64,000 bases of DNA, taken from assembly GCA_017546145.1 (NCBI GenBank), contig JAFYXN010000013.1:5213-69212 (forward strand), given 5' to 3'. The notes under the pieces were generated by a model, which did not search any database, was not told the origin of the DNA, and saw only the letters and a list, made by a program, of their open reading frames with translations. The stretch comes from Clostridia bacterium (GTDB lineage Bacteria; Bacillota; Clostridia; Monoglobales; Monoglobaceae). Shown here one piece after another: positions 10,481-45,799 of this stretch (position 1 is the stretch's first letter; each line of letters starts with the position of its first letter). A program made the translations under genes and the position numbers.

Positions 10481-10501
10481 TAAATTTGATTTTAATAAAA
10501 G

Positions 10502-10536: not shown

Positions 10537-10558
10537 CGTTTAAAAAGGAGATATATAA

Positions 10559-12196: not shown

Positions 12197-12211
12197 GAGA
12201 GGATGTATACT

Positions 12212-13948: not shown

Positions 13949-13949
13949 T

Positions 13950-14516: not shown

Positions 14517-14528
14517 GGGGTGTATAAA

Positions 14529-15833: not shown

Positions 15834-15850
15834 TTGAAAGGAGATATATT

Positions 15851-23810: not shown

Positions 23811-24722
23811 TTACAGCACCTCCAAAAGCTTTAAAATCAGCGACATTCTCATATATTTTCCGTTTAATACCTGTTTAAAGTAGCACGCTCTGGGGTCATC
23901 ATCAACTGCAACACTTATTTCGTTAACTCTGGGCAGTGGATGCATTATTGAAAGGTCGGACTTTGCCGTGGCAAGCTTTTCAGGTGTAAGAATATAGCTG
24001 TCTTTAAGTCTAAGGTAGTCTTCTTCGTTAAAGAACCGCTCGCGCTGTACTCTTGTCATATAAAGAATATCAAGCTCGGGCATAAATTCTGACAAATCCT
24101 TTGTCTGAACATAGCTGTGACCACATTCTTTTATTTCGTTTTTTACATAGCTTGGTACTTTAAGCTCTTCGGGTGAGATAAGAACAAACTTTATGTTTGT
24201 GTACCGTGTAAGAGCATTAATAAGCGAATGAACCGTACGTCCAAACTTAAGGTCGCCGCAAAGTCCCACTGTCAGGTTGTCAAAGCGCCCTTTTTCTCTG
24301 TGGATGGTAAGAAGGTCAGCAAGGGTCTGTGTTGGGTGATTGTGACCGCCGTCACCCGCATTGATTACAGGAACGGATGCATTCATGGCGGCAACCAGGG
24401 GCGCGCCCTCCTTGGGATGACGCATTGCTATAATGTCTGCATAGCATGATACAGTTTTTGCGGTATCGGCAACGCTTTCGCCTTTTGCGGCAGAGCTTGA
24501 GCCTGCATCAGACATCGAAAGAACATGACCGCCAAGCTCGTACATTGCTGCTTCAAAGCTGAGGCGAGTGCGTGTTGAAGGCTCAAAAAACAGTGTCGCA
24601 AGCTTTTTTCCGTCGCATTTATGTGCGTATTTGTCAGGGTTTTCGATTATGTCTTCGGCAACTGCTATGATTTCTTCAAGTTCTTTTGTTGAAAGGTCTT
24701 TTATATCAATTACACTTCTCAT
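23811..24722 (-). CDS. pyrB: aspartate carbamoyltransferase catalytic subunit
   Basis: 303 aa. [17 protein letters not shown] and HPLPR motifs. Confidence 0.95.
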
Positions 24723-24754
24723 TGAAGTTCATCCTTTCTGTTTATGGGTTTTGT

Positions 24755-25393
24755 TTATGCTCCAATCCAAGATTCATCAGAGGGGTTATTGCGGAAGGCA
24801 ATAAGTCTTTTGATGTCATCGGTTTTGATATAGCCTTCTTCAGCTGCAACCTCGGCAATAACATCAAAATTGGTAAGGCTGACATTTTTAACATCAGCTG
24901 CAGCAAGTCTGTCAAGACCCTTCTGCATACCGTAAGTAAAGATTGAAACAATACCAAGAACCTCAGCGCCGGCTTCACGAAGAATGTTTACAACCTCGAT
25001 TACGCTGCCGCCTGTAGAAATAAGGTCTTCAACTACAACGACCTTCTGACCGGGGAGAAGCTTGCCTTCAATCTGGTTTTGTCTGCCGTGGTCTTTTGCT
25101 CCGCTGCGTACATATCCCATAGGCAGACCCATAAGATGTGCTGTAATTGCAGCGTGTGCTATACCTGCTGTTGAAGTACCCATAAGAACCTCAGCATCGG
25201 GGTAGTTTGCCTTGATTGTTTCTGCAAGAGCAGTTTCAACATCGGTGCGCACGTCGGTGTCGCTAAGAGTAAGACGGTTGTCACAGTAAACAGGGCTTTT
25301 GATTCCGCTTGCCCATGTAAAAGGTTCTTCAGGGCGGAAGAATACAGCCTTGATTTTAAGTAAGTCTTTTGCAATTAAAATTTTTGTTTCCAT
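24755..25393 (-). CDS. pyrE: orotate phosphoribosyltransferase
   Basis: 212 aa. FTWASGIKSPVYCDNR and the PRPP loop VVVVEDLISTGGS. Confidence 0.9.
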   Translation of the reverse strand: METKILIAKDLLKIKAVFFRPEEPFTWASGIKSPVYCDNRLTLSDTDVRTDVETALAETIKANYPDAEVLMGTSTAGIAHAAITAHLMGLPMGYVRSGAKDHGRQNQIEGKLLPGQKVVVVEDLISTGGSVIEVVNILREAGAEVLGIVSIFTYGMQKGLDRLAAADVKNVSLTNFDVIAEVAAEEGYIKTDDIKRLIAFRNNPSDESWIGA

Positions 25394-25406
25394 TTTTATT
25401 TTCTCC

Positions 25407-26105
25407 TTATCCTACAAATTCGTTTATACATCTTCTGTATGCTGCAACAGGGTCTTCTGCTGCAGTAATGGGTCTGCCTACAACAATGTAATCAGAGCCG
25501 ATTTCCTTTGCCTGAGCAGGGGTCATAACTCTGACCTGATCGCCCTTGTCGCCGTCTGCAAAACGCACACCGGGGGTAACGGTCAAGAACTCTTTTCCAC
25601 AAGCATTATGTACCTTTTCGGCTTCAAGAGGTGAACAAACAACACCGTCAAGACCTGCTTTTTTTGCGTTTTCTGCATAGTGCATAACAACTTTGTCAAT
25701 GGGTTCGTTTATAAGAAGGTCTGATTTCATAGTTTCTTCACTTGTAGATGTAAGCTGAGTTACCGCAATAAGAAGAGGACGTGTACCGTCTTCGCGTGTA
25801 AGACCTTCAAGAGCCGCCTGCATCATAGAAATTGTACCTGATGCGTGAAGATTTGTCATATCAACGTCAAGGTTTCTAAGAACAGACATTGATTTCTTTA
25901 CTGTATTGGGTATGTCGTGAAGCTTTAGGTCAAGAAATATTTTATGACCTCTTTTTTTGATTTCACGTACAATTTCGGGGCCCTCTGCATAGAAAAGCTC
26001 CATACCGATTTTTACAAAGGGTTTTTCTTCCTTAAACAAATCAAGAAAATCAAAAACCTGTTTTTTTGTTGCAAAATCACATGCAATAATAACATCCTTA
26101 CCCAT
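25407..26105 (-). CDS. pyrF: orotidine 5'-phosphate decarboxylase
   Basis: 232 aa. [14 protein letters not shown] and VVGRPIT. Confidence 0.9.
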
Positions 26106-27016
26106 TAATGAGCACCTCCAATAATTTCATTTAAATCTTTTATTCCGTATTTTTCCATTGTTTTCGGAAGGTTTTCTACAATGTCACGGCTTGCAAAGGG
26201 GTCAACAAGGTTTGCTGCACCAACCTGAACAGCGGTTGCACCTGCAAGCATCATTTCGATTACGTCTTCGGCAGAGGAAACGCCACCCATACCGATAATC
26301 GGGATTTTAACAGCCTCATATACCTGATAAACCATTCGTACAGCAACTGGGAATATAGCAGGTCCGGAAAATCCGCCCATTTTGTTTGCGATAACACATT
26401 TTTTTGTCTTTAAATCGATACGCATACCAAGAAGAGTATTTATAAGGCTGATACCGTCTGCACCTGCCTCTTCACAAGCTTTTGCAATTGACACAATATC
26501 TGTCACATTGGGCGAAAGCTTGATAAATACCGGCTTTGTTGTAACTGCTTTAACTGCTTTTGTGACCTGTGCAGCAGACTCGGGAGATGTTCCAAAGCTC
26601 ATGCCGCCACCGTGAACATTGGGGCAGGAAACATTAACCTCAAACCAGCCAATCTGGGGTTCGTTGTCTAAAGCCTTGCAGGTATAGGTATATTCGTCAA
26701 TGGAAAATCCGCTGACGTTTGCCATTACCGGCTTGTGAAATACTTCTTTAAGCTTGGGAAGCTCAACTGATTTTACGGCTTCAACACCGGGGTTTTGCAA
26801 GCCGACGGAATTAATCATTCCGCTGTAGCATTCCGCAATTCTGGGCGTTGGGTTGCCAAAACGCGGCTCTTTTGTTGTTCCCTTAAACGAAAACGTACCA
26901 AGACAGTTTATATCATATATTTCGGCAAATTCATAGCCAAAGCCAAAGGTTCCGCTGGCAGGAATAACAGGGTTGTCAATAGTAATGCCTGATAGGTTTA
27001 CTTTTGTGTTTACCAT
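26105..27016 (-). CDS. pyrD: dihydroorotate dehydrogenase catalytic subunit (class 1B)
   Basis: 303 aa. [19 protein letters not shown]-like..IIGMGGV. It overlaps pyrK by 7 nt. Confidence 0.9.
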
Positions 27017-27765
27017 ATAATTTCCTCCCTTTCCAGAACAGGTCCGTCCTTACAAATTCTTTTGTTGCCGTATTTGGTCTTGCATGAGCAGCCCATACAT
27101 GCACCAAAGCCACAGCCCATACGTTCTTCAAAGCTGTATTGTCCTGACGTTGAGGCGATTTTTTCAATTGCCTTAAACATTGGCTCAGGACCGCAGGTGA
27201 AGAAGTAGTCATAACAAATATCTTTCATGGCGTCAGTTACAAAGCCGTGAATGCCATAAGAGCCATCAGCAGTTGTAACAACAGTTTTTGCGCCAAGTAC
27301 TTTAAATTCTTCTTCAAAGAAAACGTCTTCACGGCTGTTAAAACCAAGAACAACAATGGGATGTTTGCCGTCTTCAATTAATTTTTTGCAAAGATTATAC
27401 ATTGGCGGAACACCTACACCGCCGCCAATAAGAAGGGGGGATGTGCCGCTTTTGGAAATGTCAAAGCCATTGCCAAGGGCAATAAGAACATCAAGCTCTT
27501 TGCCCGGCTGGTAATTGCTCATTTTTTCTGTTCCGACACCCACAACTTTGTAGATAAGTGTCAGAGTTTTATCGTCATAATCGCATATAGATATAGGTCT
27601 TCTGAGGTACTGTCCCTCAAGCTTAATGTTGACAAACTGTCCGGGACGGGTTATATCGCTTGTGTCGCCGGAAAGCACAAGAAGGTATATATCTTTTGCA
27701 ATTTTTTGGTTTTTTAATATTGTAAAAATTTCTTGCTTCACAGTAAATTTTACCTTTCTATGCAT
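27010..27765 (-). CDS. pyrK: dihydroorotate dehydrogenase electron-transfer subunit
   Basis: RPISI flavin motif, GGGVGVPP, and the C-terminal 2Fe-2S motif CGFGACMGCSC. The start is uncertain: the ATG at 27765 overlaps the carB stop (GATGCATAG), and a GTG at 27741 behind GAAAGG is the alternative. The track start at 27804 is unlikely. Confidence 0.85.
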   Translation of the reverse strand: MHRKVKFTVKQEIFTILKNQKIAKDIYLLVLSGDTSDITRPGQFVNIKLEGQYLRRPISICDYDDKTLTLIYKVVGVGTEKMSNYQPGKELDVLIALGNGFDISKSGTSPLLIGGGVGVPPMYNLCKKLIEDGKHPIVVLGFNSREDVFFEEEFKVLGAKTVVTTADGSYGIHGFVTDAMKDICYDYFFTCGPEPMFKAIEKIASTSGQYSFEERMGCGFGACMGCSCKTKYGNKRICKDGPVLEREEIIW

Positions 27766-30700
27766 CAATTGTTGAAATGCAGATTGTGTTTTCTTCAAGT
27801 ACATCGACCAAAACCGAAACAGTGTCCAGTGCGGTAAAGAGGTTTACGTTGTTTTCTGTCGCAAGGATTCTGATTTCCTGACCGTCATGGGTCGAATTTG
27901 TGCTGATGTCACTTGTGTTGATAAGGTATGCAATATGTCCCTGACGGATTGCTTCGGGAATTTCCTCGCTGCCTTCGCTTATCTTGCCAAGAGCGTGTGT
28001 GCGGATGCCGTTCTTTTTGAGGAAATCTGCTGTACCCTTTGTTGCCTGAATGTTAAAGCCAAGGTTGTAGAAACGGCGGATAAGTGAAAGTGCTTCTTCT
28101 TTGTCCTTGTCAGCAATTGTAGCAAGCACAGTACCATAGTTCTGAAGATGCATTCCTGATGCCTGAAGTGCTTTGTAAAGGGCACGGTTAAGCTTGTCAT
28201 CATAACCGATAGCCTCACCGGTTGACTTCATTTCGGGCGAGAGATATGCGTCAAGTCCGCGAAGCTTATTGAACGAGAACACCGGAACCTTTACATACCA
28301 ACGGTCTTTTTCTGCAGGATAGGTCTTTTTGATGCCCTGAGATTTGAGGGATTTGCCCATAATTACGTTGGTTGCAATATCAGCTAAACTGTAGCCGGTT
28401 GCCTTTGAAAGGAATGGTACAGTTCTTGAAGAACGCGGGTTTACTTCGATAATAAACACGTTATCGTCTTTATCAACAATAAACTGAATGTTGTAAAGAC
28501 CAATTATGCCAATGCCCAATCCAAGCTGTTTTGCGTATTTAAGAATTGTTTTCTTAACCTTATCTGAAATACTGAATGACGGATATACGCTTATAGAGTC
28601 ACCGCTGTGTACGCCTGTACGTTCTACAAGCTCCATAATACCGGGAACAAACACATCTTTGCCGTCGCAGATGGCATCAATTTCGACTTCCTTGCCGACA
28701 ATGTATTTATCAACCAGAACAGGCTTGTCCTCATCAATTTCAACGGCTGTTTTAAGATAGTGTCTGAGCGCTTCCTCGTTTGCAACAATCTGCATAGCGC
28801 GACCGCCAAGAACAAAGCTTGGACGAACAAGAACCGGATAGCCGATTTCCTGTGCGGCTTTAACGCCGTCTTCTATTTTTGTAACAGCCTTGCCCTTTGG
28901 TTGAGGAATATTAAGCTTTTTAAGTATCTTTTCAAAAGCATCACGGTTTTCTGCACGGTCTATTGCTTCACAATCTGTACCAATAATTTTAACACCACGG
29001 TCTGTAAGTGGCTGCGCAAGGTTGATTGCTGTCTGACCGCCAAGTGATGCGATGGTTCCTTCGGGATTTTCAAAGAGGATAATATTCATTGTATCCTCGG
29101 TTGTAAGAGGCTCAAAGTAAAGCTTGTCCGCTGTTGTATAGTCGGTTGAAACGGTTTCAGGGTTGTTGTTTATAATAATTGCCTCGTAACCGGAATTTTT
29201 AATTGTTGTAACAGCGTGAACTGTTGAATAGTCAAATTCAACACCCTGACCGATACGGATTGGACCTGCACCAAGTACAACAACCGATTTCTTGTCGGTT
29301 ATCTTAGAGTCGTTTTCGCCTGTATATGTTGAGTAGAAGTAGGGAATATATGCACCGGTGTGGCAGGTGTCAACCATTTTATAAATGGGCATAATTTTGT
29401 GCTTTCTTCTCATCGCAAACACATCAATTTCAGACTCGTTCCAAAGTTTTGCAATAAATGCATCACTAAAGCCCATAGTCTTTGCGTCTTTAAGAGTTAC
29501 AGCATCGTTTTTATTTGCTTTAATTATTTGCTCAAAATCGGTTATTTTTTTGATAGATTCAAGGAAGTAAGGGGTAATCATTGTGATGTTATGTAGCTCT
29601 TCAACTGACATGCCGCGTCTTAAAAGCTGCGCAACGGCATAGATTGTATCGTCACGGAATTCCTTGATGTATTCAATCATATCCGCATCAGACATGTTTT
29701 CAAATTTTGCCATCCAAAGATGGTTTACACCGATTTCAAGTGAACGTACCGATTTAAGCATACATTCCTCAAGGGTAGAACCGATACCCATAACCTCACC
29801 GGTTGCCTTCATCTGCGTTCCAAGCTTGTTGTTGGCAGACGTAAACTTATCGAAGGGGAATCTTGGGAACTTGGCAACAATATAGTCAAGACGCGGCTCA
29901 AATGCTGCATTGGTGTTTGCAATTTTTATATCTTCAAGAGACATTCCAACTGCAATTTTTGCAGTAACTCTTGCAATCGGGTATCCGCTTGCTTTTGATG
30001 CAAGAGCAGAGGAACGTGAAACTCTGGGGTTAACCTCAATAAGATAGTATTCTGAAGTGGTAGGATTAAGTGCAAACTGAACATTGCAGCCACCCTCAAT
30101 TTTCAGCTCGCGAATAATCTTTATTGCACTGTCGTTGAGCATTTTGAGGTCTTTGTCATTGAGCGTAAGAATAGGCGCAACAACGATGCTGTCGCCTGTA
30201 TGAACACCGACAGGGTCAATGTTTTCCATACCGCAGATTGTGATTGCAGTATCGTTGGAATCACGCATAACCTCAAATTCAATTTCTTTGTAGCCCTTAA
30301 CGCTTTTTTCAATAAGCACTTGTGAAACAGGAGAAAGCTTAAAGGCGTTTGTGCCGATTTCAATAAGCTCTTCTTCGTTGTAAGCAAAACCGCCGCCTGT
30401 GCCGCCCAGAGTGAATGCAGGACGAAGAACAACCGGATAGCCGATTTTTTCAGCTGCAGCTTTTGCTTCTTCAAGTGAATATGTTATTTCGGAAGGAATT
30501 ACAGGTTCGCCGATTGACTGGCACAGCTCTTTGAAAAGCTCACGGTCTTCGGCACGTTCGATGCTTTCGCTCTTTGTTCCAAGAAGCTCGACATTACATT
30601 CTTTAAGTATGCCTTTCTTTTCAAGCTGCATTGCAAGATTAAGTCCTGTCTGACCGCCAATACCCGGCACAATTGCATCGGGTCTTTCGTAGCGGATAAT

Positions 30701-30928
30701 GCGTGCGATATATTCAAGAGTAAGAGGCTCCATGTACACTTTATCTGCAATAGATGTGTCGGTCATAATGGTAGCAGGGTTAGAGTTTGCAAGGACAACC
30801 TCGTAGCCCTCTTCCTTAAGTGCAAGACAAGCCTGCGTTCCTGCGTAGTCAAATTCAGCTGCCTGACCTATAACAATAGGTCCTGAACCAATGATGAGTA
30901 TTTTCTTTAAATCTGTTCTTTTTGCCAT
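27758..30928 (-). CDS. carB: carbamoyl-phosphate synthase large subunit
   Basis: 1056 aa with duplicated ATP-grasp halves (ILIIGSGPIVIGQAAEFDY.. and VVVLGAGPIRIGQGVEFDY..) and an MGS-like C-terminus. Confidence 0.95.
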   Translation of the reverse strand: MAKRTDLKKILIIGSGPIVIGQAAEFDYAGTQACLALKEEGYEVVLANSNPATIMTDTSIADKVYMEPLTLEYIARIIRYERPDAIVPGIGGQTGLNLAMQLEKKGILKECNVELLGTKSESIERAEDRELFKELCQSIGEPVIPSEITYSLEEAKAAAEKIGYPVVLRPAFTLGGTGGGFAYNEEELIEIGTNAFKLSPVSQVLIEKSVKGYKEIEFEVMRDSNDTAITICGMENIDPVGVHTGDSIVVAPILTLNDKDLKMLNDSAIKIIRELKIEGGCNVQFALNPTTSEYYLIEVNPRVSRSSALASKASGYPIARVTAKIAVGMSLEDIKIANTNAAFEPRLDYIVAKFPRFPFDKFTSANNKLGTQMKATGEVMGIGSTLEECMLKSVRSLEIGVNHLWMAKFENMSDADMIEYIKEFRDDTIYAVAQLLRRGMSVEELHNITMITPYFLESIKKITDFEQIIKANKNDAVTLKDAKTMGFSDAFIAKLWNESEIDVFAMRRKHKIMPIYKMVDTCHTGAYIPYFYSTYTGENDSKITDKKSVVVLGAGPIRIGQGVEFDYSTVHAVTTIKNSGYEAIIINNNPETVSTDYTTADKLYFEPLTTEDTMNIILFENPEGTIASLGGQTAINLAQPLTDRGVKIIGTDCEAIDRAENRDAFEKILKKLNIPQPKGKAVTKIEDGVKAAQEIGYPVLVRPSFVLGGRAMQIVANEEALRHYLKTAVEIDEDKPVLVDKYIVGKEVEIDAICDGKDVFVPGIMELVERTGVHSGDSISVYPSFSISDKVKKTILKYAKQLGLGIGIIGLYNIQFIVDKDDNVFIIEVNPRSSRTVPFLSKATGYSLADIATNVIMGKSLKSQGIKKTYPAEKDRWYVKVPVFSFNKLRGLDAYLSPEMKSTGEAIGYDDKLNRALYKALQASGMHLQNYGTVLATIADKDKEEALSLIRRFYNLGFNIQATKGTADFLKKNGIRTHALGKISEGSEEIPEAIRQGHIAYLINTSDISTNSTHDGQEIRILATENNVNLFTALDTVSVLVDVLEENTICISTIDA

Positions 30929-30946
30929 TTTCTTTTCCTCCCTGAA

Positions 30947-32209
30947 TTATTTCTGTTCCTGCCATACAATATTACCGTCACGTATGGTCATCAAACATTT
31001 TCCGAAAACCTCATAGCCTGCAAAGGGTGTGCTGCGCCCTTTGGAGAGAAAGTCGTCGGGGTTTATCTTATATTGTGTGTTCAGGTCAAAAACCGTAAGA
31101 CTTGCTTTGCAGCCTTCTTTAATTTCTGCCCCTATATTAAATCTCTTGCGCGGATTATCACACAAAAGAGCAATAAGCTTTTCAAGACTGATAATATTTG
31201 TTTTTACCAGATACGTATAAAGAATAGGAAATGCGGTTTCAATGCCTACAACTCCCATAAGACTGTCTTTAAGACCCCTGCCTTTTTCTTCGGCTGAATG
31301 CGGAGCATGGTCGGTTGCAATCATATCAATAGTACCATCGCATATACCCTCAATAAGTGCAAGTCTGTCGTCCTCACTGCGAAGAGGAGGATTCATTTTA
31401 AACCGTCCGTCTTCTTGCAAATCCTTGTCGGAAAGTACAAGGTAGTGCGGGGCGGTCTCGCATGTTACATCAAGACCTTCAGCCTTTGCCTGCCGTATAA
31501 GCTCAACGCTTTCTTTGGTTGAAATATGACATACATGGTACGCACATCCAATCTCTCTGACAAGCTCCAGGTCGCGCTTGATTGGTCCCCACTCGCTTTC
31601 AGAACAAATGCCCTTGTGGCAGTGTGCCTTTGCGTATTCTCCATCGTGAATATACCCACCTTTAAGCAGTGAATTATCCTCGCAGTGTGCTGAAATAATT
31701 TTCCCCAAACGTTTTGCCTCAATCATTGCGTTTTTCATCATTTCAGTATTTTGAACGCCGCGCCCGTCATCTGAAAAACCGGCTACATCAGCCGAAATAC
31801 CAGCCATATCCGAAAGCTCTTCACCAAGGCTTGCATTGGTTATTGCGCCAAAAGGATAAACGTCAATAACTGCTGAATTTTTGATTGAGTCAAGCTGAAT
31901 TTGAAGATTTTCTTTGCGATCGGGGGCAGGTATCAGGTTTGGCATGGAGCAAACTGTGGTATATCCGCCTCGCGCGCATGCTTTTGTGCCGCTTTCGATT
32001 GTTTCCTTATACAAAAAACCCGGCTCTCTCAGATGAACATGAACATCTGTAAAACCGGGAAAAATAAATCTATTGTTAAAAGGAATAACTGTAAAATCAG
32101 AAAAAAGAGGGGAGTATTCAAGAAACACTTTGCCGTCAGTAATGAAAATATCTCTTTTTTCAAACTTGCCGTTTGTATAAACCTGTGCATCTTTTAAAAT
32201 ACAATTCAT
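30947..32209 (-). CDS. pyrC: dihydroorotase
   Basis: FTDVHVHLREPG, SAHCED and ATDHAPH. The ATG at 32209 lies 7 nt after AAAGGA; the track start at 32326 runs into the promoter region. Confidence 0.9.
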   Translation of the reverse strand: MNCILKDAQVYTNGKFEKRDIFITDGKVFLEYSPLFSDFTVIPFNNRFIFPGFTDVHVHLREPGFLYKETIESGTKACARGGYTTVCSMPNLIPAPDRKENLQIQLDSIKNSAVIDVYPFGAITNASLGEELSDMAGISADVAGFSDDGRGVQNTEMMKNAMIEAKRLGKIISAHCEDNSLLKGGYIHDGEYAKAHCHKGICSESEWGPIKRDLELVREIGCAYHVCHISTKESVELIRQAKAEGLDVTCETAPHYLVLSDKDLQEDGRFKMNPPLRSEDDRLALIEGICDGTIDMIATDHAPHSAEEKGRGLKDSLMGVVGIETAFPILYTYLVKTNIISLEKLIALLCDNPRKRFNIGAEIKEGCKASLTVFDLNTQYKINPDDFLSKGRSTPFAGYEVFGKCLMTIRDGNIVWQEQK

Positions 32210-32237
32210 GGTAAATTCCTTTCTGACATTTTCATAT

Positions 32238-32266
32238 ATTTTACCACAAACCATGTTTTGTGTCAA
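32238..32266 (-). promoter_or_regulatory. sigma-A promoter of the pyr operon
   Basis: On the minus strand: TTGACA, 17-nt spacer, TAAAAT. This leaves a leader of only about 20 nt. Confidence 0.65.
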
Positions 32267-32307
32267 CCGTAAAATAAAAGTTTTTACATAAAAATTATTT
32301 GATTTAT

Positions 32308-32336
32308 TTGACAATAAATACTGCAAATGATATAAT
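32308..32336 (+). promoter_or_regulatory. consensus sigma-A promoter of the SGNH hydrolase gene
   Basis: TTGACA, 17-nt spacer, TATAAT. Confidence 0.7.
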
Positions 32337-34446: not shown

Positions 34447-34475
34447 TTGACAATGCTGAAAAAGAGTGCTATAAT
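34447..34475 (+). promoter_or_regulatory. consensus sigma-A promoter of T-box leader 2
   Basis: TTGACA, 17-nt spacer, TATAAT. Confidence 0.75.
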
Positions 34476-34489: not shown

Positions 34490-34757
34490 TTAAAAGCTAT
34501 GACGAAGAAGGTACGAAGCGTGACGTCTTCACAGAGAGTCGGTGGGTGGTGCAAACCGATAGCGGCAGTTTCAATGTACCCCTCACTTCCGAGCTGAAGG
34601 TCAGAACACCGATATGGCAAGTAGATACCTTCCGTGAATGCTACGTTAAGTGCAAAAGGCTTGTTAGAGCCTGCAGAGCGGCGAATTTTTTCGCAATTTG
34701 AGTGGTACCGCGAGTGTTTTCACCCGTCTCAAAGCTTTTCTTTGAGACGGGTATTTT
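34490..34757 (+). promoter_or_regulatory. T-box riboswitch leader, specifier most likely CUC (Leu)
   Basis: K-turn and basal helix ATGAC-GAAG ... CTTC-CGAGC. AAGGTA forms the S-turn side, AGAGAG lies at 34533-34538, and the distal loop is GGGTGGTGCAA. CTC-A at 34582-34585 sits immediately 5' of the basal helix. The T-box sequence AATTTGAGTGGTACCGCGAG lies at 34695-34714. The terminator CCCGTCTCAAAG/CTTTGAGACGGG plus TATTTT lies at 34723-34757. Confidence 0.85.
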
Positions 34758-35700: not shown

Positions 35701-36765
35701 ATGTCAGATAAAGTTTTGATGAAAGGCAACGAGGCAATAGCAGAAGCTGCTATTATCGCAGGATGCCGTCATTATTTCGGTTATCCCATTACACCGCAGA
35801 CAGAAATTGCGGCATATATGGCAAAAAGAATGCCCAAAATAGGAGGAACATTCCTTCAGGCTGAAAGTGAAATTGCAGCAATCAATATGGTTTATGGTGT
35901 TGCATCAACTGGTAAGAGAGTTATGACCTCTTCATCAAGCCCCGGTATTTCGCTGAAGGGTGAGGGACTTTCATATCTTGCGGGTGCAGACCTTCCGTCA
36001 CTGGTAATCAATGTTCAGCGTGGCGGCCCCGGTCTTGGCGGTATTCAGCCTTCACAGTCTGACTACTTCCAGGCAACAAAGGGAGCGGCTCATGGTGACT
36101 TCAGAATGATTGTTCTTGCGCCAAGCTCAGTTCAGGAAATGGCAGACATGACAGTTAAGGGTTTTGAACTTGCAGATAAGTACAGAATGACCGCAATGGT
36201 GCTGGCAGACGGTACAATGGGTCAGATGATGGAGCCTGTTTCTCTTGATTATAAGATTGGCGAACCCATCGAAAAGCCATGGGCAACAACAGGTACAAAA
36301 ATGGAAAGACCGCACAATATTGTAAACTCATTGTTCCTTGAACCTGATGAACTGGAAAAATCAAACTTTGCACGTTACGACAGATACAAAACAATTGAAG
36401 AAAACGAGTGCATGTATGAAGAATATATGATGGATGACGCGGAAATCTGCGTTACAGCATTTGGTATTGCGGCACGTGTTTCAAAAAATGCAATTAACGA
36501 AGCAAGAAAGCAGGGAATAAAGGTTGGTTTAATCAGACCAATAACTCTTTGGCCGTTCCCCAAAGCTCCATACATAAAGGCGACAGAAAAAGTAAAAGAA
36601 ATTATTTCTGTTGAACTTTCAATGGGTCAGATGATTGAGGATGTGCGTCTTGCATCAGAGTGCAAGGTTCCTGTTTCGCTCTGCAACCGTGTGGGTGGTA
36701 TGATTCCCTCACCTGAGCAGGTGCTTGATGCGATAAAAAATGCAGCAAAGGGAGGTAACAAATAA
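35701..36765 (+). CDS. 2-oxoacid:ferredoxin oxidoreductase alpha subunit (VorB/PorA-like)
   Basis: 354 aa. [31 protein letters not shown]. Confidence 0.85.
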
Positions 36766-37520
36766 TGGTAGTTTTTGAAAAACCAAAGGCTCTGGCAGAT
36801 GTCCAGATGCATTACTGCCCCGGCTGTACTCACGGTATTGTTCACCGTCTGGTAGCCGAGGTTATAGACGAACTCGGAATTGAGGGCAAGACAATAGGTG
36901 TTGCACCTGTTGGTTGCTCGGTTATGGCTTATAACTATTTTAATTGTGATATGATTGAAGCCGCACACGGACGTGCTCCGGCTGTTGCAACGGGTGTTAA
37001 GCGTTCAGACCCTGAAAACCACATAGTGTTTACTTATCAGGGTGATGGTGACCTTGCGTCAATTGGTATGGCAGAAACTGTTCACAGTGCGGCAAGAAAC
37101 GAAAATATTACGGTTATTTTTATCAACAATGCGATTTACGGAATGACAGGCGGTCAGATGGCTCCAACATCACTTCCGGGTCAGGTTACACAAACTTCAC
37201 CTTACGGAAGAGATACAGATGCCTGCGGTTTCCCCATAAGAGTTTGCGAAATGCTTTCAACTCTTGATGGTCCCGAATATCTTGAGCGTGTTACCGTAAA
37301 CAATGTTAAAAATGTTAAGAATGCTAAAAAGGCAATCAAAAAAGCGTTCCAGAATCAGATTGACGGCAAGGGCTTCTCACTTGTTGAGGTTGTTTCAAGC
37401 TGTCCTACAAACTGGGGCATGACACCTCAGGATGCACTGAAATGGATTGACGAAAAAATGCTTCCTTATTATCCTCTTGGTGTATATAAGGACCGCAGCG
37501 CAGAAAAGGAGGAAAAGTAA
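36765..37520 (+). CDS. 2-oxoacid:ferredoxin oxidoreductase beta subunit (TPP-binding)
   Basis: 251 aa. [23 protein letters not shown]. The stop and start overlap. Confidence 0.85.
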
Positions 37521-38053
37521 TGAGTACATCACAAATGCTTATTGCAGGTTTTGGCGGTCAGGGAATTTTGTTTGCAGGAAAGTTTCTTGCATACAAAGGC
37601 CTTGTTGAAGAAAAAGAAGTAAGCTGGCTTCCTTCTTACGGACCCGAAATGCGTGGCGGAACAGCAAGCTGCAGCGTAATCATAAGTGACGAGCCTGTTG
37701 GCTCGCCTATTGTATCAACTCCCGATGTTTTGGTAGCTATGAACTTACCTTCGCTTGATAAGTACGAGGCTACAGTTGCACCCGGCGGTAAAATTTTTGT
37801 TGATTCAACACTTATTGAGAGAAAAGTTAACCGTACAGATGTTGAGGTGTATTATATTCCTGCAACAAAGCTTGCCTCGGATAATAATATGCCAACACTT
37901 GCAAATATGATTATTGCAGGCAAAATTCTTAGTGTAACAGACGGATTTTCTGAAGATTCTGTCAACGCTGCACTTAAAAAGGTTATCTCTGCAAAACGTG
38001 CAGATATGCTTGAAACAAACCTTAAAGCTATGCAGATTGGTGCAGAAAACTAA
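37520..38053 (+). CDS. 2-oxoacid:ferredoxin oxidoreductase gamma subunit
   Basis: 177 aa. IAGFGGQGILFAGK..GPEMRGG. Confidence 0.85.
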   Translation: MSTSQMLIAGFGGQGILFAGKFLAYKGLVEEKEVSWLPSYGPEMRGGTASCSVIISDEPVGSPIVSTPDVLVAMNLPSLDKYEATVAPGGKIFVDSTLIERKVNRTDVEVYYIPATKLASDNNMPTLANMIIAGKILSVTDGFSEDSVNAALKKVISAKRADMLETNLKAMQIGAEN

Positions 38054-39173: not shown

Positions 39174-40571
39174 ATGAAAAATATTAATGTGGCGGACATA
39201 ACTTTGTGTCGCAATGCATCGACACTTAGTTTTAAAGAAAAGATAGAGATTGTCAGACAGCTTGAAAAGCTTAATATAAATGCAATTGAACTACCTGCAA
39301 TTGAAAATAAAAAGACTGACATCCTATTTGTCCGTACAATTTCTTCATTTGTGCAAAACGGTATTATTTCTGTTTCAGCCGGTATGAATGCTGAAGGAGT
39401 AGAATATGCACTTGAAGCACTTTCAGCAGCAAAGCATCCGCGCGTTAGAATAGAATTGCCGGTTTCTCCTGTAGGAATGGAATATACTTGTCACAAAAAA
39501 GCACCAAAAATGCTTGAACTTATTTCAGAAATGGTTTCAAAAGCAAAGGCATCCTGCACAGACGTTGAATTCTGTGCAGTTGATGCAACGCGTGCAGAAG
39601 AACAGTTTTTGATTGATGCTGTTAAAGCTGCAATCTGTGCAGGTGTATCCTTGATAACAATATGCGACACAGCCGGCGAGATGATGCCGGATGAGTTTGC
39701 TGGATTTATTGATGACATCAAAGCAAAAGTTTCTGAACTTGATAAGGTTTCTTTGGGCGTTTCATGTGAAGATAAAAACGGCATGGCAAATGCCGCAGCA
39801 GCAATTACCGTCAGAGACAGCGCAGACACTGTAAAAACTGCTGTTTCTTCCGGAACTGTTTCTTTGGAGATTTTTGCTGAAACAATTAAAAATTGCGGAA
39901 ATAACTGCGGTCTTTCAAGTCAAATCAAATATACTGAGCTTCGTCGCATCATACGTCAGATTTCAAGAATAATTAAAATAACCGATGAAGCTGATGCTTC
40001 TGAAAAGATTGAATACACAGACAGCAATACGCTTTATCTTGATAAAAGCGATGACAGCACTGCTGTTGCCGCAATGACTCAAAAACTGGGCTATGACCTT
40101 AGCGAAGAGGATTGCGAAAAAGTCTATGAAGAGTTTAAAAAACTTACAGAAAAGAAAGAAAAGGTCGGAGCAAGAGAACTTGATGCAATAATTGCAGCGG
40201 TTGCTCTTCAAGTTCCGCCTACATATAAGCTTATAAGCTATATAATCAATACCGGCAATATTATTACTGCATCTGCTCAGGTTAAGCTGTTCAAAGCTGA
40301 CACAGGTGAGGTTGAAGGCGTTTCAATGGGTGACGGACCTATTGATGCAGCATTTCGCGCTATTGAACAGATAACAGGCTCACATTATGAGCTTGATGAT
40401 TTTCAGATTCAGTCTGTAACCGAAGGCCGGGAGGCTATGGGTTGTGCATTGGTTCGTCTTCGCGAAGGAGGACGTCTTTATTCAGGCAGCGGTATTTCTA
40501 CTGACATTGTTGGCGCAAGTATAAATGCATATCTTGGTGCCGTGAATAAAATTGTTTACGAGGAGGCATAA
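39174..40571 (+). CDS. 2-isopropylmalate synthase homolog with degenerate catalytic motifs and an intact LeuA allosteric/dimerisation domain
   Basis: The HMGL-like barrel is recognisable (DVEFCAVDATR, ITICDTAGE). However, DITLCRNAS replaces DTTLRDGEQ and VSCEDKNG replaces VHCHNDLG. The C-terminal part (SAQVKL..GDGPIDAAFRAI..QSVTEGREAMG..GSGISTDIVGASINAYL) is LeuA_dimer-like. Confidence 0.7.
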   Translation: MKNINVADITLCRNASTLSFKEKIEIVRQLEKLNINAIELPAIENKKTDILFVRTISSFVQNGIISVSAGMNAEGVEYALEALSAAKHPRVRIELPVSPVGMEYTCHKKAPKMLELISEMVSKAKASCTDVEFCAVDATRAEEQFLIDAVKAAICAGVSLITICDTAGEMMPDEFAGFIDDIKAKVSELDKVSLGVSCEDKNGMANAAAAITVRDSADTVKTAVSSGTVSLEIFAETIKNCGNNCGLSSQIKYTELRRIIRQISRIIKITDEADASEKIEYTDSNTLYLDKSDDSTAVAAMTQKLGYDLSEEDCEKVYEEFKKLTEKKEKVGARELDAIIAAVALQVPPTYKLISYIINTGNIITASAQVKLFKADTGEVEGVSMGDGPIDAAFRAIEQITGSHYELDDFQIQSVTEGREAMGCALVRLREGGRLYSGSGISTDIVGASINAYLGAVNKIVYEEA

Positions 40572-40574
40572 ATT

Positions 40575-43103
40575 ATGAAACTGTCGTTTTCAACCAAGGG
40601 ATGGCATGGCCGTTCCTTTGAGGATTTTTGCGAAATAGCAAAAGATATGAAGTTCGAGGGTATTGAACTTCATAACATATACAACCCGCTTTTTACAGAA
40701 AAGGACGGCGCGTTTTATAACTATGCAGCTGCTGCAACGGTAAGACGGCTTTATGAGCTTAAGCTGACGCTTCCTTGCATTGACACTCTTTGCGATTGTG
40801 CAGATATTTCCTCTAAGGCTAAAGCATTGGAAGAAATTAATCAATGTATAAAAATTGCAACTAATCTTCATATTCCTAACGTACGTATTCGTGCAATAGG
40901 CGAAGGCATAGAAAAACAATCAGCAATCTCTGCTGTAATGGAAATCCTTTCTGAAGTTGTGCCAAATGCAGAGTCAAACAATGTTTCCCTGCTTTTGGAA
41001 ACCTCCGGAATTTTCTGCGATACAGCGGCACTTCGTGAGGTTTTGATTGATTTTGCAAGTGACTCACTTGGTGCAATATGGGATATGTATTCACCGTATT
41101 TTACTTGTGGTGAACAACCCGAAACAACAATTACAAACTTGGGTGCGTATGTGCGCCATGTGCATATTAAGGACGCACAGCGCACTGAAAATGGCACCGA
41201 ATTTTGTCTTATGGGCGAAGGTGAGCTTCCGATAGGTGAGATGATGGCTGCACTGCGCTCGGTGAATTATGACGGATTTATCTCTCTTGAATGGCATCCG
41301 GGTTGGTGCGAAGAGCTTGATGATATGGAGATTATCTTTGCTCAGTTTGTCAATTATATGAAACAGTACAGTGACCCTGCAAAGAACACACCTGCACTAT
41401 ATTCAAATAACACACATACCGGAAAGTACGTATGGAAAAAAGACCTCTTGATTGATTGCACCTTTGGTCAGGTACTTGACCGTATGGTAGAAGAATTTCC
41501 GGACCAGTACGCTTTTAAATATACAACTCTTGATTACACAAGAACCTACAGCGAATTTCGTGATGATGTTGACGAGTTTGCGCGTGCTCTTGTTGCAATG
41601 GGTGTTAAAGCGGGCACACACGTTGCTGTTTGGGCAACAAATGTTCCCCAGTGGTACATTGCATTTTGGGCAACCACTAAAATCGGAGCCGTTTTGGTTA
41701 CTGTAAACACAGCTTATAAAATTCATGAGGCTGAGTATCTGTTTAAACAGTCAGATACACATACGCTTATTATGGTTGACAGCTATCGGGACTCAAACTA
41801 TTCGCAGATTATTGCTGAGCTTTGTCCCGAACTGGAAGATTTAAAGCCGGGACAGCAGCTTCATGCAAAACGTTTGCCATTCTTGCGCAATGTAATTACA
41901 ATTGGCTTTAAGCAAAAAGGCTGCCTTGAGTGGGAGGATGCAGTTGCGCTTTCTTCAAAGGTTCCTGTTGAAACTGTTTATCGCATGGCGGCAGCAGTTG
42001 ATAAAGATGATGTCTGCAATATGCAGTACACATCAGGTACAACAGGCTTCCCTAAAGGGGTAATGCTGACGCACTACAATGTTGTAAATAACGGAAAGTG
42101 TATTGGTGACCGTATGGATTTGTCAACAGCAGACCGAATGATGATTCAGGTGCCAATGTTTCATTGCTTTGGAATGGTGCTTGCAATGACTGCATCAATG
42201 ACTCATGGTGCAACACTTTTGCCGCTTCCGTACTTTTCACCAAAGCCTGCACTTGCGTGTATCAACCGCGAACATATTACTGCATTCCATGGCGTTCCAA
42301 CAATGTTCATAGCACTTTTGGAACACCCTGATTTTGAAAAAACAGATTTTTCTTATATGCGTACAGGAATTATGGCAGGAAGTCCTTGCCCTATTTCGGC
42401 TATGCAGGATGTTGTAAACAAAATGAATATGAAGGAAATTACCATTGTTTATGGTCAGACCGAGGCATCTCCCGGATGTACCATGAGTTCTGCTGATGAC
42501 CCGCTTGAAGTACGTGTTGCAACTGTTGGACGTGCACTTCCCGAAATTGAGTGCAAAATTGTTGACCCTGACACGGGTGAGGAATGCCCTGATGGTGTAA
42601 ACGGTGAATTTGTGGCGCGCGGATACAATATCATGAAGGGATATTACAAGATGCCCAAGGCAACAGCAGCTGCAATAGATAAAGATGGATGGCTTCATAC
42701 AGGTGACCTTGCTTGCCGTACACCTGAAGGCAATTATAAAATTACAGGACGACTTAAGGATATGATTATCCGTGGTGGTGAGAATATTTATCCCAAAGAA
42801 ATTGAGGAGTTTATTTATACTCATCCGATGGTTAGTGATGTTCAGGTTATAGGCGTTCCTGACGAACAATATGGCGAAGAAATTATGGCTTGTATTATTC
42901 TTAAAGAAGGAGAAAGCATGACCGAGCAGGAAATGAAGGAATATATTCTTGCTCACATGGCAAAGCACAAGGTTCCAAAGTATATAGACTTTGTTAAGGC
43001 ATTCCCGATGAATGCTGCAGGCAAAATCCTTAAATACAAAATGCGTGAAGATGCAGTTGTTAAACTTGGTCTTCAAAAAGCAGACAGCGTGGTGACAGCA
43101 TAA
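40575..43103 (+). CDS. fusion protein: xylose-isomerase-like TIM barrel (AP_endonuc_2) domain plus AMP-dependent acyl-CoA synthetase
   Basis: 842 aa. Residues 1 to about 270 (GIELHN..LLLETSG..HVHIKDA..ISLEWH) form the TIM barrel. Residues from about 300 to 842 carry YTSGTTGFPKGVMLTH, YGQTE, TGDLA..ITGRLKDMIIRGGENIYP and GKILK. Confidence 0.8.
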   Translation: MKLSFSTKGWHGRSFEDFCEIAKDMKFEGIELHNIYNPLFTEKDGAFYNYAAAATVRRLYELKLTLPCIDTLCDCADISSKAKALEEINQCIKIATNLHIPNVRIRAIGEGIEKQSAISAVMEILSEVVPNAESNNVSLLLETSGIFCDTAALREVLIDFASDSLGAIWDMYSPYFTCGEQPETTITNLGAYVRHVHIKDAQRTENGTEFCLMGEGELPIGEMMAALRSVNYDGFISLEWHPGWCEELDDMEIIFAQFVNYMKQYSDPAKNTPALYSNNTHTGKYVWKKDLLIDCTFGQVLDRMVEEFPDQYAFKYTTLDYTRTYSEFRDDVDEFARALVAMGVKAGTHVAVWATNVPQWYIAFWATTKIGAVLVTVNTAYKIHEAEYLFKQSDTHTLIMVDSYRDSNYSQIIAELCPELEDLKPGQQLHAKRLPFLRNVITIGFKQKGCLEWEDAVALSSKVPVETVYRMAAAVDKDDVCNMQYTSGTTGFPKGVMLTHYNVVNNGKCIGDRMDLSTADRMMIQVPMFHCFGMVLAMTASMTHGATLLPLPYFSPKPALACINREHITAFHGVPTMFIALLEHPDFEKTDFSYMRTGIMAGSPCPISAMQDVVNKMNMKEITIVYGQTEASPGCTMSSADDPLEVRVATVGRALPEIECKIVDPDTGEECPDGVNGEFVARGYNIMKGYYKMPKATAAAIDKDGWLHTGDLACRTPEGNYKITGRLKDMIIRGGENIYPKEIEEFIYTHPMVSDVQVIGVPDEQYGEEIMACIILKEGESMTEQEMKEYILAHMAKHKVPKYIDFVKAFPMNAAGKILKYKMREDAVVKLGLQKADSVVTA

Positions 43104-43908: not shown

Positions 43909-43933
43909 AAAAAACAGCCTTAGGGCTGTTTTT
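43909..43933 (+). terminator. intrinsic terminator ending the T-box(Leu) operon
   Basis: AAACAGCC-TTAG-GGCTGTTT followed by TTATTTT. Confidence 0.75.
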
Positions 43934-43976: not shown

Positions 43977-44144
43977 ATGCGGATAATAAGATATATAAAC
44001 GGAAAACGTGTCAGCAAGCCCTTTGACAACAGCATAATTGTTGATAAAAACGAAATTTCACAGGCAATAAACAGCGCAAATCGCAGATTGAGAGGCACAG
44101 ATAACAGAAATATTCATGCCAACTTTGGTTTAGAAAATGAGTAA
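43977..44144 (+). CDS. 55-aa basic protein of unknown function, translationally coupled to the recombinase (below the ORF-track cutoff)
   Basis: I translated MRIIRYINGKRVSKPFDNSIIVDKNEISQAINSANRRLRGTDNRNIHANFGLENE. AAGGAGA lies 7 nt upstream, and its last 8 nt (ATGAGTAA) overlap the recombinase start. Confidence 0.5.
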   Translation: MRIIRYINGKRVSKPFDNSIIVDKNEISQAINSANRRLRGTDNRNIHANFGLENE

Positions 44145-45492
44145 AATTGCAGCAATCTATATTCGTGTTTCAACGGATGCTCAAAGGGAAGAAGGCTATT
44201 CAATAGATGCACAAAAAGAAATGCTTACGGCATACTGTGTGTCAAAGGGAATAAAGTGTTTTGAATATTATATTGACGGTGGATTTAGCGGAAGCAATAT
44301 TGAACGTCCTGAATTGAAAAGGCTTATAGGGGATGTCAAGGAAGGAAAAATCGGATGCGTGCTTGTTTATAAGCTTGACCGTCTTTCAAGAAGTCAGAAG
44401 GACACTCTTTATTTGATTGAAGATGTGTTTAACCCGTATGATGTGGATTTTGTTTCGCTTAACGAAAGCATGGATACATCAACACCGCTTGGTAGGCTGA
44501 TGCTTGGTATACTTTCGGCATTTGCACAGCTTGAACGAGAAAACATTAAAGAACGTACAAGTATGGGTATGAAGGAAAGGGTTAAAGAAGGCTACTGGAT
44601 GGGTGGAGGCCGTGTTCCGTTTGGCTATGACTATGATTCCAAAAAGGGTATTCTTGTCCCAAACCAAGATGCCGAAACTGTACGAAAGGTCTATGAACTG
44701 TATCTCGGCGGTTATTCAACCAATGCAATTGCAAGAATGGTTGGCTTAAGCTATGAACGGCTTGCAAGACAAATTCTAAAGCGAAAAACCAACGCAGGGT
44801 TTATTGTTTATAAAGGCGAGGAGTTCTTAGGAAAGCACAAACCTATAATAAGTCTTGAAACCTATGAACGTGCTATGCAAAAAATGTCAGAACGCTCGGG
44901 CAAATTTAAAGGCGACGCCCAAAACCTTCTTACTGGATTGGTAAAATGCGGTGTTTGCGGAGCAAAGATGCGATATCATAAATGGGGAAAACAAGGCTAC
45001 AAGCTGGTTTGTTATTCAAAGGATAAAAGTAAACCGCATCTTGTAAAAGACCCTGACTGTACAAATAACGGAATTTGGGCTGATGAACTGGAAAATGTGG
45101 TAAAAGAAGACCTATTTTCATTGGGTATAAAAAGCACTAAAACAAAATTTGATAACGAAAAAAGTGTTATTGATATTTTAAAAGAAAACGAAAAAAAGCT
45201 TTCTGATAAGTTAAAGCGGCTTTATTCTCTTTATGCAGAGGCGGAGGATGAAATTCTTAAGGAGTCTATTAAAGAAATAAAGATTAATTTGGATAGTATA
45301 CAAAAGCAGATAAAACGCGAAGAAAAAGAAAGGGTTATCTCTAAAAGGAACAATGAAATAAAAAAACAACTCAGTACGCTTCGTGAAACATGGAAATATC
45401 TTACCCCAAAAGAAAAACGAAATATTATTGAAAGCTGTGTATCAGAAATTGTTGTAGCAGATGATAATGCAGAAATATACTACAAATTTTAG
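44137..45492 (+). CDS. large serine recombinase (SpoIVCA/phage-integrase type)
   Basis: 451 aa. The catalytic region is AAIYIRVSTDAQ..YKLDRLSRS. It also has a recombinase domain, a zinc ribbon (CGVCGAKM..CYS..DPDC) and a coiled-coil tail. Confidence 0.9.
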   Translation: MSKIAAIYIRVSTDAQREEGYSIDAQKEMLTAYCVSKGIKCFEYYIDGGFSGSNIERPELKRLIGDVKEGKIGCVLVYKLDRLSRSQKDTLYLIEDVFNPYDVDFVSLNESMDTSTPLGRLMLGILSAFAQLERENIKERTSMGMKERVKEGYWMGGGRVPFGYDYDSKKGILVPNQDAETVRKVYELYLGGYSTNAIARMVGLSYERLARQILKRKTNAGFIVYKGEEFLGKHKPIISLETYERAMQKMSERSGKFKGDAQNLLTGLVKCGVCGAKMRYHKWGKQGYKLVCYSKDKSKPHLVKDPDCTNNGIWADELENVVKEDLFSLGIKSTKTKFDNEKSVIDILKENEKKLSDKLKRLYSLYAEAEDEILKESIKEIKINLDSIQKQIKREEKERVISKRNNEIKKQLSTLRETWKYLTPKEKRNIIESCVSEIVVADDNAEIYYKF

Positions 45493-45493
45493 T

Positions 45494-45535
45494 TTTTCTA
45501 CATGGTACATTCATTGGCACAGCGTACGTAGAAAA
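45494..45535. repeat. att-like imperfect inverted repeat centred on the sigG breakpoint
   Basis: TTTTCTAC (45494-45501), 26-nt spacer, GTAGAAAA (45528-45535). Inner GTAC elements lie at 45505-45508 and 45524-45527. The dyad centre at 45514/45515 coincides with the last SigG-like codon. Confidence 0.6.
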
Positions 45536-45799
45536 CTTAACACCGTGAGAGGTATCAAAATTATCAAGTGCCTTAATAAGCCCGATGCAACCTACCTGAA
45601 ATAAATCGTCTATATTTTCGTTCCTGTTTGAAAATCTTTGCAGTACACTAAGTACAAGTCTTAGATTGCCGTATATAAATTCTTGACGGGCGTTTGTATC
45701 GCCCCTTTGAATTTTGGAAAAAAGCTCTTGCTTTTGAGCCTCGCTCAAAACGGGAAGCTTTGATGTGTTTACTCCGCATATATCAACTTTGTTAATCAT
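45512..45799 (-). pseudogene. sigG: 5' fragment (96 codons, regions 1.2-2.3) of sporulation sigma factor G; the 3' half is missing
   Basis: MINKVDICGVNTSKLPVLSEAQ..GNLRLVLSVLQRF..DDLFQVGCIGLIKALDNFD..VKFSTYAVPM matches B. subtilis SigG (KVEICGVDTSKLPVL..FSTYAVPMIIGEIRRYLRDN). The sequence after PM is unrelated (NVPCRKTKICS..) and stops at 45425 inside the recombinase gene. The RBS GGGGGA and an upstream GTATA-N16-GAAATAATA are intact. Confidence 0.8.

Follow-up and report, generated by a model that had tools for sequence, protein, structure and literature searches.

The window analysed here is a stretch of 64,000 nucleotides (nt) of Clostridia bacterium DNA (GenBank assembly GCA_017546145.1, contig JAFYXN010000013.1, positions 5,213 to 69,212). 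Its forward strand carries, at 39174..40571, an intact open reading frame (ORF) for a 465-residue paralogue of 2-isopropylmalate synthase (LeuA), which we call pseudo-LeuA. The gene sits in a 9.5-kb operon that extends from a promoter and a T-box leader to a terminator. The Pfam model PF00682 (HMGL-like) matched residues 17-260 of the protein with an E value of 5e-31, and PF08502 (LeuA_dimer) matched residues 333-460 with an E value of 5e-29. The LeuA equivalog models of NCBIfam gave 200-283 bits against cut-offs of 532-748. The best of these scores came from NF002086 (282.7 bits, cut-off 532), and TIGR00973 gave 256 bits (cut-off 598.7). The LeuA models matched the protein in two pieces, with about 45 model positions skipped, and they fitted it more closely than the CimA models did.

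We examined the active-site columns by aligning pseudo-LeuA with E. coli LeuA, and in phmmer alignments to the LeuA structures 3ewb and 3rmj. The region of the DTTLRDGEQ motif (DTTLRDGEQALQAS) was changed to DITLCRN with a four-residue deletion. The (S)VHTHDDLG motif became (G)VSCEDKNG, with one His replaced by Ser and the other by Glu. Residues R13/D14, H202 and H204 of E. coli LeuA aligned with C12/R13, S197 and E199 of pseudo-LeuA. The three metal ligands of LeuA (Asp in RDGEQ, both His in HxH) were therefore all missing, and the substrate-binding Arg was a Cys. The active-site Glu was also gone, as FSCEDAGR was changed to FCAVDATR, and the family has Val, Ile or Leu at this position. Five residues were deleted from the NGIGERAGN loop, and a 27-residue deletion removed accessory subdomain I together with its AFAHSSGIHQDG motif (HxSGIHQDG / HSSGIHQDG). 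An earlier model-made reading of the sequence alone (the sequence-only reading) had described a LeuA homologue with degenerate RDGEQ and HxH motifs and lost metal ligands. The alignments agreed with this description, and extended the loss to the Glu, the GERAGN loop and subdomain I. The blocks which that reading had quoted (DVEFCAVDATR, ITICDTAGE, GDGPIDAAFRAI and GSGISTDIVGASINAYL) were all found in the protein, and both of the Pfam domains that it had proposed to check were matched.

The sequence-only reading had also considered metal ligands conserved at shifted positions. We looked for these in 63 family members and found none, nor any conserved acidic or His residue as a replacement. The former ligand positions were variable, with R/Q/T/K at R13, V/I/L/A at V136, S/C/M/V at S197 and E/D/N/S at E199, so the metal site has not simply moved. 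A shifted register, in which R13-N14 would stand in for the Arg-Asp pair, was rejected because both positions vary across the family. A Cys-based metal or Fe-S site made of C12, C106, C134, C164, C241 and C245 was rejected as well. These residues were conserved in close relatives only, C245 being Tyr or Phe in 22% even of these, and none of the six was conserved in the broad family. One homologue is publicly annotated '2-isopropylmalate synthase', but the missing replacement ligands and the scores far under the equivalog cut-offs make an active isopropylmalate or citramalate synthase with shifted ligands hardly credible. The same holds for a decaying pseudogene, which is excluded by an intact ORF conserved in hundreds of species. 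Judged by its residues, pseudo-LeuA is a catalytically dead paralogue of bacterial 2-isopropylmalate synthase. Although homologous, it has neither the catalytic features that define LeuA nor scores above the curated cut-offs, and it does not belong under the name LeuA.

In spite of these losses the predicted fold was that of LeuA. The AlphaFold2 model had a mean predicted local distance difference test (pLDDT) value of 82, with values around 90 in the barrel. Foldseek placed the model on the N-domain of Listeria LeuA (3ewb) with a root-mean-square deviation (rmsd) of 1.8 Å and a template modelling (TM) score of 0.92, and full-length M. tuberculosis LeuA matched it at an E value of about 1e-22.

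This is a large family, with relatives encoded in at least 574 GTDB species genomes. The carriers are mostly metagenome-assembled genomes (MAGs) from gut and rumen, in Acutalibacteraceae, Ruminococcus and Oscillospiraceae, and belong chiefly to Oscillospirales. At least 120 database clusters had 59% identity or above. At E<=1e-30 we found 330 representatives of 50%-identity clusters, of which more than 100 were 455-480 residues long with 32-58% identity, and every distant representative inspected in this range showed the same catalytic losses. Public databases name the members 'hypothetical protein', '2-isopropylmalate synthase' or 'alpha-isopropylmalate synthase regulatory domain-containing protein'. 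Two full-length LeuA-like relatives, P0242 (516 residues) and P0255 (511 residues), were partly degenerate. P0255 has TLCDGEQ, and RAY where HxH is expected, and P0242 has lost the HSSGIHQDG motif. They may represent independent or intermediate degenerate LeuA lineages.

The distribution of constraint within the protein differed from that of true LeuA. From a metagenome scan seeded with distant pseudo-LeuA members, we compared 47 degenerate members with 20 true LeuAs. Mean column entropy in the degenerate members was 1.82 over the barrel and 0.98 over the regulatory domain, as against 1.10 and 1.53, respectively, in the true LeuAs. Thus, the regulatory domain was the most conserved part of pseudo-LeuA, and the barrel was its least constrained folded part. 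This reversed order implied that selection now acts mainly on the effector-binding domain. G423 of pseudo-LeuA, a Gly conserved in the family, aligned with G462 of E. coli LeuA. The G462D change in the E. coli enzyme is a feedback-resistant allele that is used to remove leucine feedback (PMC6345581). The retention of a leucine-type regulatory domain, as the sequence-only reading had it, is consistent with both the entropy values and this Gly. Pseudo-LeuA is thus a paralogue that lacks the catalytic residues and is under purifying selection, as expected of a pseudoenzyme that serves as an allosteric regulatory subunit. One might suppose that it is only a scaffold or stabiliser of the acyl-CoA ligase encoded by the next gene, with no ligand sensing and with a regulatory domain that serves dimerisation alone. 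The obligate pairing with the ligase described below would fit this, and LeuA_dimer is indeed a dimerisation domain. However, the conserved motifs belong to the region that binds the effector, among them the site of the feedback-resistant change, and the domain is more strongly conserved here than in true LeuAs. We regard a pure scaffold as improbable.

The leader of the operon was a T-box of the leucine class, with Stem I, specifier loop, T-box sequence, terminator and a Leu specifier. In the window, it scored 85.5 bits, just under the Rfam gathering score of 93, and its specifier CUC was followed by A. The homologous leaders in related loci scored 105-140 bits. A T-box above the gathering score stood right upstream of pseudo-LeuA in 22 of 27 related loci tested, and 71 of 86 loci had a T-box core motif within the 200 nt before the gene. 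In alignments of about 40 leaders, distant members included, the specifier was CUC or CUG wherever it could be read. Since this variation is synonymous, the assignment to Leu is better supported. The only T-box of the window that passed the gathering score (8622-8874) was rejected as the regulator of the pseudo-LeuA operon, because it governs a separate operon for a transporter, IOR, PaaK and an ACT protein. The sequence-only reading had placed RNA-level T-box control on the operon; a leucine T-box (CUC) was confirmed, but its usual position in the family is upstream of pseudo-LeuA and not upstream of the 2-oxoacid:ferredoxin oxidoreductase (OFOR) genes. As deduced from these leaders, the leucine T-box controls the pseudo-LeuA module and would induce it when tRNA-Leu is uncharged.

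Between the leader and pseudo-LeuA, the operon in the window encodes a VOR-type OFOR, its ferredoxin and the aminotransferase IlvE, and two genes follow pseudo-LeuA (Table 1). The window VOR scored 542 bits with the VorB model NF005507 (cut-off 399). The CbiA/ParA-like P-loop protein was always encoded 5' of the ferredoxin and VOR genes and had no match among the NCBIfam models; it may help to mature or assemble the oxidoreductase.

Table 1. Features of the pseudo-LeuA operon and domains of pseudo-LeuA (window coordinates)
Feature	Position	Strand	Remarks
Promoter-like site TTGACA-17-TATAAT, 12/12 matches plus TG extension, 5' of T-box	34447..34475	+	consensus match only
T-box leader, specifier CUC (Leu)	34490..34734	+	85.5 bits, E 1.6e-18
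T-box terminator hairpin	34722-34752	+	13-bp stem, then T run
CbiA/ParA-like P-loop protein, 222 residues	34800..35468	+	
2x[4Fe-4S] ferredoxin, delta subunit of 2-oxoacid:ferredoxin oxidoreductase, 68 residues	35485..35691	+	
VOR-type 2-oxoacid:ferredoxin oxidoreductase	35701..38053	+	alpha 35701-36765, beta 36765-37520, gamma 37520-38053
IlvE branched-chain amino acid aminotransferase, 354 residues	38075..39139	+	NF009897 480 bits vs cut-off 307
Pseudo-LeuA	39174..40571	+	
Residues 1-265, HMGL-like (beta/alpha)8 barrel without Arg-Asp, active-site Glu, His-x-His and GERAGN loop	39174..39968	+	
Residues 266-288, variable disordered linker replacing accessory subdomain I	39969..40037	+	entropy 2.48; pLDDT <50 at 270-285
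Residues 289-335, accessory subdomain II, retained	40038..40178	+	weak HCS_D2 match
Residues 336-465 and stop codon, LeuA_dimer regulatory domain with GDGPIDAA, G423 and GSGISTDI	40179..40571	+	
Fusion, N-terminal domain: xylose-isomerase-like (AP_endonuc_2) TIM barrel	40575..41429	+	
Fusion, C-terminal part: acyl-CoA ligase (AMP-binding), closest to PRK12583 fatty-acid CoA ligase family	41430..43103	+	
Amidohydro_2 enzyme, 267 residues	43103..43906	+	
Terminator-like hairpin, operon end	43910..43933	+	

In the region 44137-45799, a large serine recombinase gene (Resolvase, Recombinase and Zn ribbon, 451 residues) starts 200 nt past the operon terminator, and a sigma-70 region-2 ORF lies on the opposite strand. 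A similar recombinase was found 3' of the module in two close relatives, and a mobile element, or one excised during development, may have its border here. Upstream of the operon, on the reverse strand (23811-32326), lies a pyrimidine biosynthesis cluster with genes for aspartate carbamoyltransferase, dihydroorotate dehydrogenase, dihydroorotase and the large subunit of carbamoyl-phosphate synthase, an ordinary housekeeping context.

The gene directly after pseudo-LeuA was its constant companion. In the window, a gap of 3 nt separates pseudo-LeuA from an 842-residue fusion of an AP_endonuc_2 TIM barrel with an acyl-CoA ligase. In a tblastn map of 80 GTDB loci, the order pseudo-LeuA, fusion, amidohydrolase was seen wherever downstream sequence exists, and the fusion lay directly 3' of pseudo-LeuA in 76 of the 78 loci with downstream sequence. 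It did so too in all of the roughly 47 degenerate members from the metagenome scan, down to 39% identity. Overall, the pair was adjacent in about 125 loci with enough sequence. The reciprocal search from the TIM domain found pseudo-LeuA just upstream in three of three contexts, one of them a Synergistaceae MAG, and no fusion-type neighbour stood beside the true LeuAs of the same metagenome scan. A stand-alone TIM domain was considered and discarded, as all short matches were contig-end or frameshift fragments of the fusion. Since the adjacency held in the forward and reciprocal searches, we took the pair of pseudo-LeuA and fusion as the invariant core of the module. On genomic adjacency, the fusion is the one catalytic partner with which pseudo-LeuA is obligately associated. 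Identity across the family was 66-95% in the ligase domain and 39-80% in pseudo-LeuA. The window ligase scored 697 bits with the PRK12583-like model (cut-off 832).

Two of the four canonical metal ligands in the fused TIM barrel were not conserved in the family alignment, D170 being replaced by Asn or His and E239 by Val or Ile in some members, while the window copy still carries both. The module therefore seems, from these alignments, to contain two degenerate TIM barrels, and a family-wide active isomerase or dehydratase was rejected for the AP_endonuc_2 domain. The amidohydrolase keeps all its ligands (HxH, Lys, His, His and Asp). It was rejected as part of the invariant core because it is absent or moved in many distant members, and is best described as a third gene that the module often, though not always, includes. 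Unbiased clustering of the neighbouring ORFs gave only four other recurrent neighbours, namely the VOR cluster, IlvE, genes that combine helix-turn-helix (HTH), cupin and ligase domains, and, in 16-17 loci, a Cys_Met_Meta_PP gene together with HTS. The same clustering found no leuBCD genes as recurrent neighbours, nor were any found in the window.

In the Synergistaceae MAG (GCA_030531285.1, locus L169:1-3343) the pair occurs outside Clostridia, right after the 3' end of an ilvD-type dehydratase gene, and no T-box core motif was recognisable in the 230-nt gap of this locus. The Cys_Met_Meta_PP gene (O-acetylhomoserine sulfhydrylase-like) and the HTS gene (homoserine O-acyltransferase) come after the leucine module, with gaps of only 6-30 nt, in about 17 loci (L002:14688-16968, L004, L012, L014-L017, L020, L022, L024, L042, L047, L056, L058, L071, L085, L092 and L093). 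No second regulatory RNA was detected there.

The sequence-only reading had named the OFOR, IlvE or the ligase as possible partners. The ligase has stood as the constant next gene, but the OFOR and IlvE have not, as they were missing from many neighbourhoods. Both adjoin pseudo-LeuA in the window and in about 45 related loci, which would favour a leucine sensor acting on one of them instead of the ligase. However, at least 17 loci carry the module with neither OFOR nor IlvE within 10 kb, so the degenerate form does not always accompany OFOR operons, a co-occurrence that the sequence-only reading had wished to see surveyed. In most other loci the module has a T-box of its own and lies apart from OFOR and IlvE, at distances of between 350 nt and several kb. 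Moreover, the two enzymes are common to three amino acids, and a brake that answers to leucine only would starve the synthesis of Val and Ile. We therefore rejected OFOR and IlvE as the partner, and consider their control by pseudo-LeuA very improbable.

The position of the module among its neighbours suggested the pathway to which it belongs. In many genomes, an Ile T-box (AUC) precedes one HTH+cupin+ligase gene, and a Val T-box (GUA/GUC) precedes a second one, which is followed by CbiA, ferredoxin, VOR and IlvE. The Leu T-box and the pseudo-LeuA module come after these Ile and Val units. From the specifiers and gene order, each branched-chain amino acid seems to have a ligase of its own, and all three ligases to supply a common VOR and IlvE. 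The module would therefore be the leucine-specific entry to reductive carboxylation, from isovalerate to leucine. The enzymes required for such a route, a VOR-type oxidoreductase and IlvE, are encoded in the same operon as pseudo-LeuA in the window. The Ile and Val T-box ligases offer a parallel that hints at a ligase specific for isovalerate.

The HTH+cupin+ligase proteins have about 760-800 residues and an XRE-type HTH, and one or two of their genes, each with a T-box, lie upstream of the VOR cluster (L025:1-5175, L027, L037, L043, L052, L054, L062, L073, L079, L080 and others). An enzyme that is fused to a DNA-binding domain and also stands under a riboswitch-like leader is an unusual arrangement. 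The window contains a second T-box operon on the forward strand (8622-16252), whose T-box scored 112 bits with a specifier that is ambiguous between UAC (Tyr) and ACC (Thr). Its genes are, in order, an SSF symporter, an AMP-binding ligase, IorA, IorB, a PaaK-like ligase and an ACT-pair protein. By gene content it looks like a unit that converts arylacetates to aromatic amino acids by reductive carboxylation, parallel to the leucine operon. In this IOR/PaaK operon, the small ACT protein holds the place that pseudo-LeuA holds in the leucine module.

Taken together, these results suggest that pseudo-LeuA is probably, though far from certainly, a leucine-sensing regulatory subunit of the ligase that limits the synthesis of leucine from isovalerate. 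The ligase would activate isovalerate to isovaleryl-CoA, VOR would carboxylate this to 4-methyl-2-oxopentanoate, and IlvE would transaminate the product to leucine. In rumen microbes, the carboxylation and amination of isovalerate to leucine is an established route (PMC7356843). Pseudo-LeuA would dimerise via its regulatory domains and bind leucine there in the manner of LeuA. An isolated PF08502 domain is able to serve as a self-contained, ligand-responsive binding module (PMC13381585). Leucine was chosen as the ligand because of the T-box context and the closer match to LeuA than to CimA models. In true LeuA, leucine binds at the dimer of the regulatory domains. The protein would dock on the ligase fusion, probably on the N-terminal TIM domain, and hold the ligase back at high leucine. 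Since the C-terminal domain must undergo a large rotation for an ANL ligase to work, a leucine-dependent clamp on this rotation is plausible. Such an arrangement would provide fast end-product feedback by a protein beneath the slower control by the T-box. It is from the genomic pattern that we infer that leucine binds, that a physical complex forms, in which direction regulation runs and that isovalerate is the substrate.

Several observations weigh against this model. The PF08502 domain binds Ile in CimA (PMC13381585), so the domain alone is no proof of leucine specificity. Among ANL enzymes, the leucine ligase falls outside the lineage of the Ile and Val ligases, to which it is 24-27% identical, and an isovalerate preference is therefore not supported by paralogy. 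The model leaves unexplained both the intact amidohydrolase next to the module and the presence of Cys_Met_Meta_PP and HTS genes on a leucine-controlled transcript. Finally, D8, T10, P96, S98, D137, R140 and D165, on barrel strands 1, 4, 5 and 6, are kept even in distant members, and from these residues a ligand pocket could have survived in the barrel.

Such a pocket is central to a different view, in which pseudo-LeuA is a neo-functionalised subunit. The barrel pocket would be catalytic or substrate-carrying, and the protein would work with the TIM-ligase fusion and the amidohydrolase in a new leucine pathway. This might lead from a precursor other than isovalerate to isovaleryl-CoA or 4-methyl-2-oxopentanoate, or might replace the chemistry of LeuA. 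The conserved strand residues lie at the C-terminal ends of the strands, and the metal site of the amidohydrolase is intact. The leucine ligase has not only another lineage but also partners that the Ile and Val ligases lack, and in the Synergistaceae locus the pair comes right after ilvD. All four points speak for this view. Against it, all known catalytic elements of the DRE-TIM/LeuA type are lost or variable, subdomain I is deleted, and the barrel is the folded part under least constraint. The fused TIM barrel has likewise lost conservation at two of its ligands, the amidohydrolase is missing or displaced in many distant members and stands outside the invariant core, and no recurrent leuBCD genes lie nearby. 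We consider neo-functionalisation rather unlikely on this balance. A specific form of it appears more doubtful still, in which pseudo-LeuA, fusion and amidohydrolase would together build the carbon skeleton of leucine by an ATP-dependent chemistry not described so far, with the dead barrel as a substrate-holding or catalytic subunit.

It has long been known that Oscillospirales of the rumen and gut (Ruminococcus, Acutalibacteraceae and related groups) use branched-chain volatile fatty acids to form branched-chain amino acids. To our knowledge, the genes and control of this route are poorly defined. Neither the pseudo-LeuA family nor the array of three T-box ligases was described in any paper found by full-text searches, which covered the pseudoenzyme, its domain, the ligase and the genes of the pathway. 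If the regulatory-subunit reading is true, the leucine branch has an added protein-level sensor that was recycled from the first enzyme of the canonical pathway, and would be a new case of pseudoenzyme evolution with the logic of HisZ. It would explain hundreds of genes now annotated as hypothetical, as 2-isopropylmalate synthase or by the regulatory domain alone, and metabolic models would no longer wrongly infer a LeuA step from them. It would also open a way to study how isovalerate is used in the gut and rumen, and biosensors could be built on a natural, stand-alone module that binds leucine.

Compared with LeuA of the TIGR00973 / NF002086 type, pseudo-LeuA has the same barrel fold (rmsd 1.8 Å to 3ewb), the same accessory subdomain II and the same regulatory domain with GDGPxDA and GxGxSTDI motifs, and it is about 30% identical to E. 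coli LeuA in every domain. In contrast to LeuA, it lacks the Arg-Asp pair, His-x-His, the active-site Glu and subdomain I, and part of its GERAGN loop is missing. The whole protein is shorter by about 50 residues, its conservation pattern is inverted, and it is always paired with a ligase and not with leuBCD.

HisZ is an inactive paralogue of histidyl-tRNA synthetase that serves as the histidine-sensing regulatory subunit of the short-form ATP phosphoribosyltransferase. The logic is alike in that a dead paralogue from the metabolism of the same amino acid partners a different enzyme for end-product feedback. The folds and partners are unrelated, and the complex and allostery of HisZ have been demonstrated while those of pseudo-LeuA are inferred from genomics. 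By this analogy HisZ is the nearest functional precedent, and the ACT subunit of acetohydroxyacid synthase, IlvH/IlvN, is a looser one. IlvH/IlvN is likewise a separate polypeptide that binds a small molecule and is encoded beside the committed enzyme of a branched-chain amino acid route, and IlvH has been described as a Val-binding module (PMC13381585). The ACT protein beside the PaaK-type ligase in the IOR/PaaK operon of the window is similarly a ligand-binding polypeptide next to a ligase. In contrast to both, the sensor fold of pseudo-LeuA is LeuA_dimer and not ACT, and a whole dead barrel remains attached to it. Leptospira LeuA2 and the plant methylthioalkylmalate synthase 6e1j belong to the same superfamily and show its modularity. 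They are the mirror image of pseudo-LeuA, having kept catalysis and lost the regulatory domain.

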